NCBI GenBank assembly: GCA_045541395.1
Contig: JAZQIZ010000009.1
Span: forward strand, 20,302 to 84,301
DNA: 64,000 nt
Reading direction: 5' to 3'
From: Eubacteriales bacterium
GTDB lineage: Bacteria > Bacillota > Clostridia > Oscillospirales > UMGS1783
Under the pieces are notes generated by a model. That model ran no database searches, was not told the DNA's origin, and saw only the letters and a program-made list of their open reading frames with translations. The translations under genes were made by a program, and so were the position numbers. Positions 23,689 through 58,441 of the stretch are shown here, piece after piece. Within the stretch, counting starts at the first letter, position 1; each line of letters opens with the position of its first letter.

Positions 23689-23765
23689 CCGCCCGTAGCT
23701 CAGCTGGATAGAGTAGCAGATTCCGATTCTGATGGTCGGGGGTTCAAATCCCTTCGGGCGGGCCA
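23689..23765 (+). tRNA. tRNA-Arg(CCG)
   Basis: CCGCCCG/CGGGCGG acceptor stem, D arm AGCTCAGCTGGATAGAGT, anticodon loop TTCCGAT, GGTTCAAATCC T arm and encoded CCA; 77 nt. Confidence 0.95.
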
Positions 23766-23799
23766 GAAAAACCGACTTGTTTCGACAAGTCGGTTTTTC
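23766..23799 (+). terminator. Terminator-like hairpin directly after tRNA CCA
   Basis: Perfect 15-bp stem gaaaaaccgacttgt-ttcg-acaagtcggtttttc. Confidence 0.8.
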
Positions 23800-23801
23800 A
23801 A

Positions 23802-23973
23802 TGAAATTCGCCTTACGGCGAGTGAAATAGCTACACTATGAAATACGCTTTCGCGTATGAAATATTTGCTTCGCAAATGTTTAAGAGGCGAATTTTATTT
23901 CACTTTCTGCCTTAGCAGAAAATTTCATAATCCGTTAGGATTATTTCATATCGAGCATAAGCGAGATATTTCA
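23802..23973 (+). repeat. tRNA-associated 4xTGAAAT/4xATTTCA multi-hairpin element, copy 1
   Basis: TGAAAT at 23802, 23823, 23839 and 23858; ATTTCA at 23897, 23922, 23943 and 23968; separated by short hairpins. Confidence 0.85.
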
Positions 23974-24048
23974 TTTAATGAAAAATTTGTAGTGGTTCAA
24001 ATATATAGGTCACAAATTCAAAAAGGTTCGAAATTGTGCTCTCTTTCC

Positions 24049-24085
24049 ATAAAAACAACACCTCCTGCAGGTGTTGTTTTTTTAT
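24049..24085. terminator. Terminator-like hairpin
   Basis: aaaaacaacacct-cctgc-aggtgttgttttt. Confidence 0.6.
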
Positions 24086-24196: not shown

Positions 24197-26749
24197 ATGA
24201 AAAAAACAGTTTTAGGAATCCTTGCTCACGTGGACGCAGGTAAAACTACTCTTGCGGAAGCAATATTGTATTCCACGGGTAAGTCCCGTTCCTTGGGCAG
24301 GGTAGACAAAGGGGATACAAATTTAGACACCCACAGACTTGAAAGGGAGCGCGGTATAACTATATTTTCCAGTCAGGCAGTATTCAATATAGGAAATATG
24401 GAAGTGTGTCTTCTTGATACGCCGGGCCATATTGATTTTTCTGCCGAAACTGAAAGAGCATTGCAGGTGCTTGACTATGCAATACTTGTTATAAGCGGAC
24501 TTGACGGTGTTCAGGCTCATACCCGTACTTTGTGGCGCCTTTTGCAGTTTTATAATGTTCCCACCTTCGTGTTTGTTACCAAAATGGATTTTGCCCGCAA
24601 TACTCAAACGGAACTTTTATCTCAACTTCAAAAAGAGCTTGACAGCGCCTGTGTAGATTTTTCTAATAAAGAGGCCCGTGATGAAGGCCTTGCCATGTGT
24701 TCTGAAAGGTTACTTGATAAATATCTTTCGGGAGAAGAAATAACTTCCGAGGATGCGGCAGGCCTAATTTTGCGCCGCAGGGCCTTCCCTTGTTATTTTG
24801 GTTCCGGTCTTAAGCTTGAAGGAATTGATTCTTTCTTGAATGGCCTTGAAACTTATACTGTTTCACAAAATTATCCCGATGTCTTTGGTGCCAAGGTGTT
24901 CAAGATCACCCGCGATAAGTCTGATCGACTGACTCATCTGAAAATTACGGGCGGTAAGCTTAAGGTCAAAGATACGGTAGACTTTGACGGTGTGCCTTCT
25001 AAAATCAATCAGATTCGAATATATTCAGGTGAAAAATATGTAACTGTTGATGAAGTTGAGGCCGGAAGTATATGTGCCGTAACAGGGCCCGGTAATACCT
25101 ATAACGGACAGGGAATAGGTTATGAGGCCAATTCTGAAAAACCTATTTTAGAACCTGTTATGAACTATAGGATAGTTCTTCCCAAGGATGTTGATGCCCG
25201 TACTATGTTGCCAAAACTGAAAATGCTTGAAGAGGAAGATCCTCAGCTGCATATTGGCTGGAATGAGTACCTGCAGGAAATTAACGTCAGTCTTATGGGA
25301 GAGGTTCAAGTTGAAATTTTTAAAAGCATAGTTGCGGATAAATTCTCTGTTGATATTGAAATAGATGAAGGCAGGGTATTGTACAAAGAAACAATATCCA
25401 ATAAAGTTGAAGGTGTTGGCCATTACGAGCCTCTGCGTCACTATGCTGAAGTCCATTTGATTTTAGAGCCACTTCCTCGGGGAAGCGGGCTTGTGTTTGG
25501 CAGCTGTTGCAGTGAAGATATTTTAGATAGAAACTGGCAAAGGCTTGTTATGGGGCACCTTTCCGAAAAAAAGCACCTAGGTGTTCTTACGGGATCACCT
25601 ATAACGGATATGAAAATAACCTTAGCCTCGGGTAGAGCCCATATAAAGCATACCGAAGGCGGGGATTTCAGACAGTCTACCTACAGAGCCGTAAGGCAAG
25701 GCCTGATGAGAGCTCAGTCTGTATTACTTGAACCTTATTACTCTTTTCGTATAGAGGTTCCAAGCGAACAGATCGGCAGAGTTATAAACGATATTCGTAT
25801 GCGCAAGGGAACCATGAACCGTCCTGAAGACTTGGGCGGTGTATCCCTTATAACAGGCAAAGCCCCCGTTGTGCAAATGAACGGCTATGCTTCCGAAGTT
25901 GCGGCATATACAGGCGGAAAGGGAAGAGTATTTTACGAGCTTGCTGGTTATGATGAATGTACTGAGACCGAAAAGGTTGTGAATGAGAAAAATTATAATC
26001 CAGAAAGTGACCTTGAAAATTCTCCCGATTCTATATTCTGTGCCCACGGAAGCGGTTTTCCCGTTAAGTGGGATCAGGTGCCTCAGTATATGCACCTTGA
26101 AAGCTGCTTGAAAAAAGAATCGGAAAAAGAGGTTCGCCGTCGTAATTTCAGTATAGATGACAAGGAACTGGAAGCAATAATGGAAAGGGAATTCGGTAAG
26201 GTTGAATATAATCTTTACCGACCTAAGCCTGTATATAAGGAAGAGGAACGGGTTGCTGTTCCGGTGGTAAGAAAGCAATACGTTATAGTTGACGGATATA
26301 ATCTTATATTTGCCTGGGATGAGCTTAATTCTATTGCAAAGGATAGTCTTGAATCAGCAAGAGAGCGGCTTATGAATATTCTTTCTAATTACAGTGCCTT
26401 TACACATATAAACGTTATTCTGGTATTTGATGCCTACCGTGTGCCCGGCGGAAAGGGTGAACGGTTTGAATACCACAATATTCATGTAGTATATACTAAG
26501 GAACACCAGTACGGCGATAACTATATTGAAATGCTGGTTGCCGAAATAGGTAAAAACGAATACGTAAGGGTTGTAACCTCCGACAGGCTTATTCAGCTTT
26601 CCGCTATCCGTTCAGGTGTTCTTCGTACATCCTCCCGTGAATTTATAGGTGAAATAAATAACGTGGAAGGCCAAATTGCAAACGTACTGTCAGATCTCGA
26701 AAAGCAAACCCCTAAAACAACCATAGGCGGTATGTTAAAAATCGAATAA
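24197..26749 (+). CDS. TetM/EF-G-like translational GTPase fused to C-terminal NYN (YacP/Rae1-like) RNase domain
   Basis: AHVDAGKTT, RGITI, DTPGHIDF, TKMD and EEDPQL; C-terminal IVDGYNLIF, VFDA and VVTSD. Confidence 0.85.
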   Translation: MKKTVLGILAHVDAGKTTLAEAILYSTGKSRSLGRVDKGDTNLDTHRLERERGITIFSSQAVFNIGNMEVCLLDTPGHIDFSAETERALQVLDYAILVISGLDGVQAHTRTLWRLLQFYNVPTFVFVTKMDFARNTQTELLSQLQKELDSACVDFSNKEARDEGLAMCSERLLDKYLSGEEITSEDAAGLILRRRAFPCYFGSGLKLEGIDSFLNGLETYTVSQNYPDVFGAKVFKITRDKSDRLTHLKITGGKLKVKDTVDFDGVPSKINQIRIYSGEKYVTVDEVEAGSICAVTGPGNTYNGQGIGYEANSEKPILEPVMNYRIVLPKDVDARTMLPKLKMLEEEDPQLHIGWNEYLQEINVSLMGEVQVEIFKSIVADKFSVDIEIDEGRVLYKETISNKVEGVGHYEPLRHYAEVHLILEPLPRGSGLVFGSCCSEDILDRNWQRLVMGHLSEKKHLGVLTGSPITDMKITLASGRAHIKHTEGGDFRQSTYRAVRQGLMRAQSVLLEPYYSFRIEVPSEQIGRVINDIRMRKGTMNRPEDLGGVSLITGKAPVVQMNGYASEVAAYTGGKGRVFYELAGYDECTETEKVVNEKNYNPESDLENSPDSIFCAHGSGFPVKWDQVPQYMHLESCLKKESEKEVRRRNFSIDDKELEAIMEREFGKVEYNLYRPKPVYKEEERVAVPVVRKQYVIVDGYNLIFAWDELNSIAKDSLESARERLMNILSNYSAFTHINVILVFDAYRVPGGKGERFEYHNIHVVYTKEHQYGDNYIEMLVAEIGKNEYVRVVTSDRLIQLSAIRSGVLRTSSREFIGEINNVEGQIANVLSDLEKQTPKTTIGGMLKIE

Positions 26750-56449: not shown

Positions 56450-56728
56450 AAAATAAAAAAACTCTGTATTCCTATAATGAATACAGAGGACGATCTTAGC
56501 CGTGGTACCACCTCAGTTTACCGCGCCTTCACAGGTGCGGCCTTTTCAAGTGTCTAACAACACTCTTGTTCTGTTACGGGAACTCCCGTTGCAGCCTACT
56601 TAATTATTTGTTCGGTGCACTGCTAACAGGATGTATTCAGAATTAAACTCCCCATTGCCTTTCACCAGCCGGCAACTCTCTGAAGGCTCGTTTAAAACCT
56701 ACTTGTTCCTGCTCAAACGCATTTCATG
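56450..56728 (-). promoter_or_regulatory. T-box riboswitch leader, probable Tyr (UAC) specifier
   Basis: On the minus strand: AGTA, AGAGA and GGTGAA stem I motifs, GAA-TAC-A specifier (56633-56635), T-box AGGTGGTACCACGG (56500-56513) and terminator 56455-56488. Confidence 0.9.
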
Positions 56729-57202: not shown

Positions 57203-57751
57203 TTATCTCTTAACAATTGGAATCGTGAACGAAGACCCTAGTTTATCTTCAAAAAACAGCAAAGATAAATCTTCACTTGCGCCATACAAATACAAATCAG
57301 AATACATTGATTGCCATTTTTCTCGTTGTAACTCCGTCGTTTGCATAAGAAGATTATATGCTTTGTCACATCGGCTTATCCACAAATCATGATACAGGGA
57401 ATTTGATATAATCCTATTCTTCAAGTCAGACACAGAATGTATTTTGAAACGCTCACACCATACTATATCATTTTTATATAGCATTTGACCGGTTGCAGAA
57501 GTAACGATGTCGTCTAAATCGTATACAATAGGTACCATATTAACCCCCATCGTATATGCAAGAAATGCTCTGCTGTGACCATCAGTTAATGTCAGGCTAT
57601 CGTTCCCGAAATCGTGGACGGGTAAAGGATCAAAATTACTTAAATCGGAAGGGTTAAACCAACTTCTAATATTAGTTAACTTATCTTCGTTTAAAAAGAT
57701 TTGGCTCACACCTAAATCAGCAACAGGAAAATATTGTATCCCGTTAAACAT
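57203..57751 (-). CDS. Hypothetical protein with ParB/sulfiredoxin-like N-terminal motif
   Basis: L..SQ.FL...K, PLPV and LTDGHSRAF motifs; ATG overlaps the upstream stop (TAATG at 57749-57753). Confidence 0.6.
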   Translation of the reverse strand: MFNGIQYFPVADLGVSQIFLNEDKLTNIRSWFNPSDLSNFDPLPVHDFGNDSLTLTDGHSRAFLAYTMGVNMVPIVYDLDDIVTSATGQMLYKNDIVWCERFKIHSVSDLKNRIISNSLYHDLWISRCDKAYNLLMQTTELQREKWQSMYSDLYLYGASEDLSLLFFEDKLGSSFTIPIVKR

Positions 57752-58095
57752 TATTTGTTCTCCTTTGCGGTGTTGATGGAGGCAATCAAAATGCGGCGGA
57801 TTGTACCGCATTGGTTGAAAAGGTCAACAGCGGTTTCTCTGTCCAAAATATCGGATTTTACAAACAGTTCCAACCAATATTCCGTTTCGTAGCATTCCTT
57901 CAAGGCAATCTGCAGTTTTGCAATGAAGTCAGGCTTTCCGTGAGCATAGTTTGCTTCGTGGATGTTTGCGCCAACGGAGGTTGCAGAGCGTTCCAACTGA
58001 TTAACGAGGGAATAATGGCCTTTGATATTTTCGCAAAGTTTGATAATTTTAACTGCAAAGTCTGTTGAAAGTTTCCGAAGTTTAGATTCTGCCAT
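57751..58095 (-). CDS. Four-helix-bundle protein (23S rRNA-IVP / Avd-like family)
   Basis: QLERSATSVGANIHEA and FIAKLQIALKECYETEYWLEL family signatures; AAGGTGG RBS. Confidence 0.9.
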   Translation of the reverse strand: MAESKLRKLSTDFAVKIIKLCENIKGHYSLVNQLERSATSVGANIHEANYAHGKPDFIAKLQIALKECYETEYWLELFVKSDILDRETAVDLFNQCGTIRRILIASINTAKENK

Positions 58096-58119: not shown

Positions 58120-58147
58120 ATTATACCATATCGATTAGAATATTCAA
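58120..58147 (-). promoter_or_regulatory. SigA-type promoter for four-helix-bundle gene
   Basis: Minus-strand TTGAAT-16 nt-TATAAT with an extended TG; the -35 lies 2 bp from the last box of the hairpin element. Confidence 0.6.
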
Positions 58148-58149
58148 AG

Positions 58150-58319
58150 TGAAATATCCTTTGGATGTGAAATAATGACCTGCGGTCATTGTGAAATATT
58201 GCGTCTTTGCCGCAATGTGAAATGAAATTTGCCTACATTCGCGTCAGCGAATATTTCACATGTACGAAGTAAATATTTCACAGCGGAGCTGTTTCACTTG
58301 CCCGTCAGGGCAAATTTCG
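58150..58319 (-). repeat. tRNA-associated 4xTGAAAT/4xATTTCA multi-hairpin element, copy 2
   Basis: On +: TGAAAT at 58150, 58168, 58192 and 58218; ATTTCA at 58253 and 58275, GTTTCA at 58291, ATTTCG at 58314; hairpins between boxes. Confidence 0.85.
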
Positions 58320-58321
58320 TT

Positions 58322-58364
58322 GAAAAGAACCCACACTTGTCGTAGACAAATGTGGGTTCTTTTC
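58322..58364 (-). terminator. Terminator-like hairpin directly after tRNA CCA
   Basis: On the minus strand: gaaaagaacccacatttgtc-tac-gacaagtgtgggttcttttc. Confidence 0.8.
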
Positions 58365-58441
58365 TGGTCGGAGTGGCGGGATTTGAACCCGCGGCCTCTT
58401 GGTCCCGAACCAAGCACTCATACCAACTGAGCTACACCCCG
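58365..58441 (-). tRNA. tRNA-Pro(CGG)
   Basis: Minus strand CGGGGTG...CTTGG-TTCGGGA-CCAAG...GGTTCAAATCC...CACTCCGACCA; 77 nt. Confidence 0.95.

Follow-up and report, generated by a model that had tools for sequence, protein, structure and literature searches.

Comparison of related sequences indicates that Gut-1 (RF01706), a known motif catalogued since 2010 without a function, contains a real long-range helix that had not been modelled previously. One strand, X, has two possible partners. We refer to its local pairing with X' as P1 and to the long-range pairing of B1-X with X'' and the adjoining centre as P0. P0 is missing from the Rfam model and kept across unrelated box types, and its three strands can be mutated separately and rescued in pairs. 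The motif itself was already known; the helix and the evidence for DNA are new, not the whole system. In the literature, with subscription journals mostly outside the coverage of the search, no description of the full element or of P0 was found, the 2010 Gut-1 paper (PMC2864571) being the one relevant hit. Our preferred reading, held with slightly less than even confidence, is that X adopts a two-state fold as single-stranded DNA within a tRNA-targeted mobile cassette and that P0 and P1 are both selected.

Anatomy of the element and covariation of its three strands

The window, i.e. the whole stretch of 64,000 nucleotides that was analysed, holds two copies of the element (Table 1). The full element spans ∼175 nt and follows a fixed order: the tRNA, a terminator-like hairpin, a left arm of 7-mer boxes and mini-hairpins (B1, hairpin 1 consisting of X, loop and X', boxes B2-B4 and a linker), a centre (X'' and the complement of B1) and a mirrored right arm with four inverted boxes. 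Both copies exceed the gathering score of the Gut-1 covariance model in Rfam, which is 50 bits. This model comprises three left-arm hairpins joined by UGAAAU linkers, and because it stops before the centre the long-range pairing is absent from the catalogued motif. Across the source genome the 16 Gut-1 matches on both strands resolve into 9 elements: 7 follow tRNAs, 2 belong to a GTKATAT box type and follow other hairpins, and P0 is present in all 9.

Table 1. Coordinates of the two copies of the element and of adjacent features in the window
Feature	Position	Strand	Remark
tRNA-Arg(CCG)	23689..23765	+	copy 1 starts directly after its CCA end
Terminator-like hairpin, copy 1	23766..23799	+	15 bp, with A-run and T-run; outside both alternative helices
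Gut-1 (RF01706) match, copy 1	23799..23868	+	58.0 bits; left arm only, ends before centre
P0 5' strand, copy 1	23800..23813	+	B1 23801-23807, X 23808-23812, first loop base
Hairpin P1 (local), copy 1	23808..23821	+	X, 4-nt loop, X'
Left arm, copy 1	23822..23885	+	B2 23822, B3 23838, B4 23857; mini-hairpins 2-4; short linker
Centre, P0 3' strand, copy 1	23886..23899	+	X'' and B1 complement; 14 pairs, one G.T
Right arm, copy 1	23897..23974	+	inverted boxes R1-R4 (23897, 23922, 23943, 23968), mini-hairpins 5-7
tRNA-Pro(CGG)	58365..58441	-	5' of copy 2
Terminator-like hairpin, copy 2	58322..58365	-	
B1 and hairpin P1, copy 2	58298..58320	-	B1 58320-58314, P1 58313-58298
Gut-1 match, copy 2	58248-58322	-	61.1 bits
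Left arm, copy 2	58235..58297	-	boxes B2-B4, mini-hairpins 2-4
Centre X'', P0 3' strand, copy 2	58224..58234	-	
Right arm, copy 2	58149..58223	-	boxes R1-R4
Sigma-70-like promoter match	58120..58147	-	10 of 12, extended -10; directly 3' of copy 2; consensus match only
Four-helix-bundle gene	57751..58095	-	114 aa; PF05635 23S_rRNA_IVP, TIGR02436

An earlier note on this DNA had described two pairs of complementary 10-mers, one pair in each copy. All four words lie where it had placed them and are exact complements. The interval that it singled out in copy 1 corresponds to the left half and centre of the element. For copy 2 the order of the strands had to be reversed: this copy is on the minus strand, behind tRNA-Pro(CGG), and thus 58309-58318 is the 5' strand and 58224-58233 the centre, the opposite of the order in copy 1. 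The linked change from C/G to T/A at X, X' and X'' is real.

The boxes and mini-hairpins vary in ways of their own. Among the 120 listed elements introduced below, the first letters of the boxes tend to change jointly across the whole element (A-type versus G-type), both types are found inside one X class, and mini-hairpins are reused at differing positions while their number stays constant. Elsewhere in the window, 24197-26749 (+) encodes an 850-aa EF-G/TetM-like GTPase fused to a YacP-like NYN domain, which falls below all resistance-model cut-offs, and 56483-56726 (-) is a T-box leader 5' of a sodium:solute symporter gene.

For the covariation analysis we used 121 elements from Clostridia genomes among the matches listed. 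The search pattern fixes only the flanks and leaves X, X' and X'' free. One element failed to parse, and counts out of 120 refer to the remaining listed elements. A helix was considered intact if its first 5 pairs were all Watson-Crick. P1 is intact in 108 of the 120, P0 in 104 and both in 97; breaks were observed in 12 cases for the local and in 16 for the long-range helix. When the centres were randomly reassigned 2000 times, P0 was intact in 24.8 elements on average with a maximum of 40. The P0 match is beyond chance, and the covariation of the three sites that had been proposed from two copies holds in the wider alignment. A centre varying independently of hairpin 1, named in the earlier note as evidence against its proposal, is not the overall pattern among these elements, and single breaks occur. 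A match between the centre and the 5' arms of hairpins 2-4 occurs in 1 of 111 listed elements.

There are at least 10 X classes with lengths of 5-8 nt, and several differ by single changes repeated at all three sites. As the 120 copies fall into few classes, the number of independent changes is about ten rather than 120. In the chimera L172, X belongs to one class and X' = X'' to another, and neither helix forms. Pairs that are formed in P0 and not in P1 covary as well. For the GTKATAT subtype (n = 22) we observed A:T in 13 cases, T:A in 7, C:G in 1 and a mismatch in 1. For the GTGAAAT subtype we observed T:A in 26, G:C in 40, G.T in 54 and no other combination among the 120, where the letters were limited by a pattern that allowed G or T alone at the first position and A, C or T at the second. 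X'' departs from its class consensus at 2.8% of positions compared to 38% in the adjoining linker, a comparison that is partly circular because the classes were defined on these same strands. The complement of X'' to X is longer than that of X' in 50 of the 120 elements and shorter in 23.

A matched X'' could also be a by-product of copying, kept matched as the polymerase slips or switches template among the repeats, with an alternative fold that is functionless. Template switching is described in the accessible part of PMC8604942 as making the arms of inverted repeats uniform and inverting the spacers, and it would explain whole-block class changes. The basis of this explanation are the rare collapsed or flipped forms (L304, L292, L376 and L111) and the triplication in L133, which show that the repeats do slip and switch template. 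However, the same part of PMC8604942 ties switching to short spacers and the spacer here measures ∼60 nt. P0 is also nearly as intact as P1, collapsed forms are rare, and the layout recurs with unrelated X sequences. Furthermore, in 118 of the 120 elements one or more pairs of the B1/centre extension are not Watson-Crick, and correction should have removed these. We consider a functionless by-product unlikely.

Predicted folds and the strand involved

Two folds are predicted because X is matched to two partners across many relatives. When copy 1 was folded under constraint as full-length RNA, the energies of the two folds were -55.3 and -54.3 kcal/mol. The mutually exclusive pairings suggested in the earlier note (X with X' or with X'') are thus predicted, and with similar stability, as expected of an attenuator or riboswitch; the left half alone favours P0. 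With the left half and the centre single-stranded (tRNA strand), the probability of P0 is above 0.5 in 100 of the 120 listed elements as DNA and in 110 as RNA. For the full element, P1 is above 0.5 in 91 (DNA) and 59 (RNA), and P0 wins in 14 and 27, respectively. These results are equilibrium predictions. In a length scan of copy 1 the predicted order is P1, then P0 at 4-36 nt past X'' and then P1 again. The range in which P0 dominates varies with the point at which the strand is cut, and in copy 2 it is narrow (RNA 0.74, DNA 0.46, at one point only).

A termination switch, which the note had implied, found no support. The element lies 3' of the T-run of the terminator, and there is no overlap between the terminator and either helix. 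A match of X or X' to the terminator region (the 45 nt upstream) is present in 2 of the 120 listed elements, the same terminator types are found with several X classes, and copy 2 is followed by a separate promoter-like site (a consensus match) for its downstream gene. Taken together these observations leave the attenuator reading unsupported, and we rejected a terminator/antiterminator coupling, as X varies independently of the terminator. The element may still have a role in read-through RNA.

The loops carry information on the strand. Nearly all mini-hairpins have a C-G closing pair. Read on the tRNA strand, the complement of GNA accounts for 123 of the 153 distinct triloops in the left arm and GNA for 0, whereas of the 78 distinct right-arm triloops 41 are GNA and 1 is the complement. 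The 4-nt loops of the right arm follow GNNA in 61 of 97 cases, among them GNRA in just 32. Stem wobbles exhibit the same strand swap, with 15 A.C versus 5 G.T on the left and 19 G.T versus 7 A.C on the right. GCGNAGC and GCGNNAGC are exceptionally stable as DNA mini-hairpins and the stability of the tested RNA counterpart was much lower, as described in the text available from PMC13037366. A preferred strand that flips at the centre is possible for DNA at one locus and not for a single transcript. The loop and wobble statistics point to single-stranded DNA in which the two halves use different strands. Two observations count against this: around 20 loops of the left arm can be read as C(UGCG)G on the tRNA strand, which is an RNA-type UNCG loop, and P0 has no strand preference (G.T 5 versus A.C 4 among the 120 listed elements). 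We also considered kissing between the loops of the two arms and rejected it, since 11 of 12 pairings of left and right loops within elements were at chance level and the remaining one reached p = 0.03 uncorrected.

An alternative explanation is an RNA switch. Read-through RNA from the strong tRNA promoter would fold such that P0 together with a U-rich run, or a box-to-box pairing of the two arms, decides on termination or processing, and a ring protein would bind the repeats and autoregulate. TRAP is a parallel for a ring protein that regulates its own expression. The predicted path from P1 to P0 and back to P1 on the tRNA strand would be in line with such a switch, as would the UNCG-type loops and the G.T at the B1/centre pair in 54 of the 120. 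In several copies consisting of plain heptamers we noticed by eye no obvious promoter between repeat and gene, and X'' can cover the tRNA CCA there. Rfam files Gut-1 as an sRNA, in keeping with the part of PMC2864571 available to us. However, the element is located 3' of the terminator and is independent of it, the hairpin-type copies are followed by a promoter match of their own, the loops of the two arms show no complementarity within an element, and the gene is absent from most copies. The change of loop type at the centre would also not be explained by a single transcript. We give the RNA switch a small chance. On our preferred reading as DNA, the element offers a testable case in which a motif filed as RNA would act as single-stranded DNA with a strand swap in mid-element.

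tRNA ends, rearranged forms and the four-helix-bundle gene

In relatives, the orthologous tRNA-Arg(CCG) and tRNA-Pro(CGG) loci have a different box type or a heptamer remnant after the CCA, or lack an element there. In one case the tRNA 3' end that precedes the copy is duplicated, and 76 of 112 copies are situated within 80 nt of a tRNA or tmRNA. The 8 loci on viral contigs are ordinary full elements, mostly behind tRNA ends. It is likely that the cassette moves between tRNA 3' ends. We found no mobilising enzyme. For reverse transcriptase there were 0 PF00078 matches in the source genome, and across 41 genomes it was present in 4 of 23 Gut-1-positive and 3 of 18 negative genomes; dependence on it was rejected given this lack of association.

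Several observations concern the surroundings of the element. Two tRNA T-loop-like words lie 3' of copy 1 (window ∼23985-24050, +) and are possibly attachment-site remnants; such words occur 170-330 nt downstream of 18 of 111 copies, a count without control. In L415 and L431 a different hairpin-rich repeat occupies the position after the CCA, and the L415 genome has neither Gut-1 nor the TIGR02436 protein.

Rearranged forms are rare. A fully inverted left arm was found neither among 120 metagenome matches to an alternative-form pattern nor in 301 genomes, and we rejected an invertible left arm, the metagenome matches being nearly all due to chance. From the 42 loci that passed the fold or box filter only L292, L304 and L376 are real and none is a full inversion. 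In 41 genomes there are 0 collapsed compared to 29 full forms, and the 301 genomes yielded 2 pattern matches, 1 of them real. The collapsed or flipped products are L304, L292 (loop inverted), L376 and L111, with L304 and L111 representing 'empty' hairpins.

These forms are relevant for a further explanation, namely double-stranded recombination sites, in which X and X'' would flank an invertible segment as its inverted sites, or X' and X'' would be a target-site duplication around an inserted left arm. X' and X'' are direct repeats, 5/5 identical in 101 of the 120 listed elements, and travel together in the chimera L172; the 'empty' hairpins would fit as well. The missing full inversion speaks against it, as does X'' often fitting X further than X' does, or reaching into the loop or CCA in plain-heptamer copies. 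The box spacings of 16-26 nt also do not keep helical phase. We regard recombination sites as very unlikely.

Larger rearrangements were noticed in individual loci. L133 contains a tandem triplication of the unit of X' plus heptamer (arm), and L075 and L384 are tandem duplications of the whole element. In L106 (reverse strand, 1-640) the four-helix-bundle gene lies between direct duplicates of the left arm plus centre, joined at the centre, which tandem amplification or an assembly effect could explain. L111 (reverse strand, ∼1360-2150) reads collapsed hairpin and right arm, gene, terminator-like hairpin and an array resembling a left arm, which gives the impression of a circular permutation.

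Copy 2 and one other copy in the source genome are directly upstream of a four-helix-bundle gene (PF05635, TIGR02436); the other copies have varied downstream genes. PF05635 is a large uncharacterised Avd-like family for which pentamers are known, and the closest solved relative of the 114-aa protein is 2RLD, an entry with 5 chains. Element and protein co-occur: across 41 genomes of the order, whose kin are not independent, Gut-1 and TIGR02436 were found together in 21, Gut-1 only in 2, the protein only in 3 and neither in 15. The protein gene follows directly downstream in just 13 of 74 copies, which counts against our preferred reading.

We also searched upstream of four-helix-bundle genes, using 59 loci; the query was matched by 55 of these, and the DNA upstream was long enough in 53. 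A triple, i.e. a hairpin with a further partner at a distance that pairs over at least 11 bp, was present in 24 of the 53. The controls gave none in 530 shuffles, none in 300 random windows and 3 in 32 windows downstream of tRNAs that lack the element. Two of the 24 come from the source genome, and in one (L115) a different pairing was scored though it has P0. The triple finder misses hairpins with long loops: five plain-heptamer copies scored none, yet they show a P0 of 11-16 bp. The box word varies upstream of these genes and some copies are plain tandem heptamers without mini-hairpins. In these, the terminator-like hairpin serves as hairpin 1, X'' is found ∼40 nt further on, and P0 often extends into the loop or the tRNA CCA. 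Box types whose X sequences are unrelated also exhibit the three-copy layout. The automatic heptamer count gave 3-6 per left arm and is window-dependent, so a value of about five rests partly on reading by eye.

Proposed mechanism and comparison with known systems

According to our preferred reading, DNA opening from the tRNA side would form hairpin P1 first. Once the centre is exposed, X'' would displace X' with the B1 box as a toehold, and P0 would then close the left arm into a ring with unpaired boxes. As the right arm opens, box-to-box pairing of the arms (a 'ladder') would restore P1. The P0 ring may be the shape read by the four-helix-bundle ring protein during copying or movement of the cassette, in which case protein binding would have a role in movement, and the ladder may be a masked resting state. 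With no linked reverse transcriptase, the mover would be a host or separately encoded recombinase.

A more specific version seems improbable to us as it stands. It describes a transposase-free mobile cassette with a programmed DNA strand-displacement switch, in which X'' would capture the tRNA-proximal strand (including the CCA in plain-heptamer copies) and loop out about five 7-mers for a five-subunit ring that directs integration at tRNA 3' ends. If this were true, PF05635 would gain a function and Gut-1 would be a single-stranded DNA device and no longer an orphan RNA.

We compared the element to several known systems. PF05635 resembles Avd of the diversity-generating retroelements (DGRs) of the BPP-1 type, as far as the accessible text of PMC10053308 describes it. 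DGR targets carry a DNA hairpin or cruciform with a variable stem and a sequence-dependent loop in the portion of PMC3240598 consulted, and GRA triloops are found in the target hairpin of archaeal DGRs in that of PMC4372165. The element here differs by its array of seven hairpins and the three-copy helix; the Avd-like accessory protein (PF05635 / TIGR02436) is present and the genome lacks a reverse transcriptase, and we rejected a DGR. A retron, with an ncRNA closed by a1/a2, was rejected as there is no adjacent reverse transcriptase.

REP/RAYT elements are dispersed palindromic single-stranded DNA repeats that are multi-copy, intergenic, hairpin-forming, patchy and tied to one small gene. Our element is likewise made of multi-copy intergenic hairpins with a patchy distribution and a linked small gene. 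However, this gene encodes a four-helix bundle with no known catalytic motif rather than an HUH (Y1) enzyme, and insertion is at the tRNA CCA. A MITE would have terminal inverted repeats and a target-site duplication; here the inverted pair bounds the left half only, the occupants change at the tRNA CCA and X'' often fits X better than an X' copy would, and we rejected this class as well.

In attenuators and riboswitch expression platforms one strand has two exclusive partners. Here neither helix overlaps or precedes a sense-strand terminator and there is no covariation with the terminator. There is also no consistent class of downstream gene, the four-helix-bundle gene following the 13 of 74 copies mentioned above, and we rejected such a platform.

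The closest system is Gut-1 itself, of which both copies are members by score. The element of ∼175 nt, which yields matches on both strands, contrasts with a model of 77 nt without the centre or the long-range helix. Gut-1 was judged an RNA and probably not a switch in the available part of Weinberg et al. 2010 (PMC2864571), whereas the evidence presented here points to single-stranded DNA.
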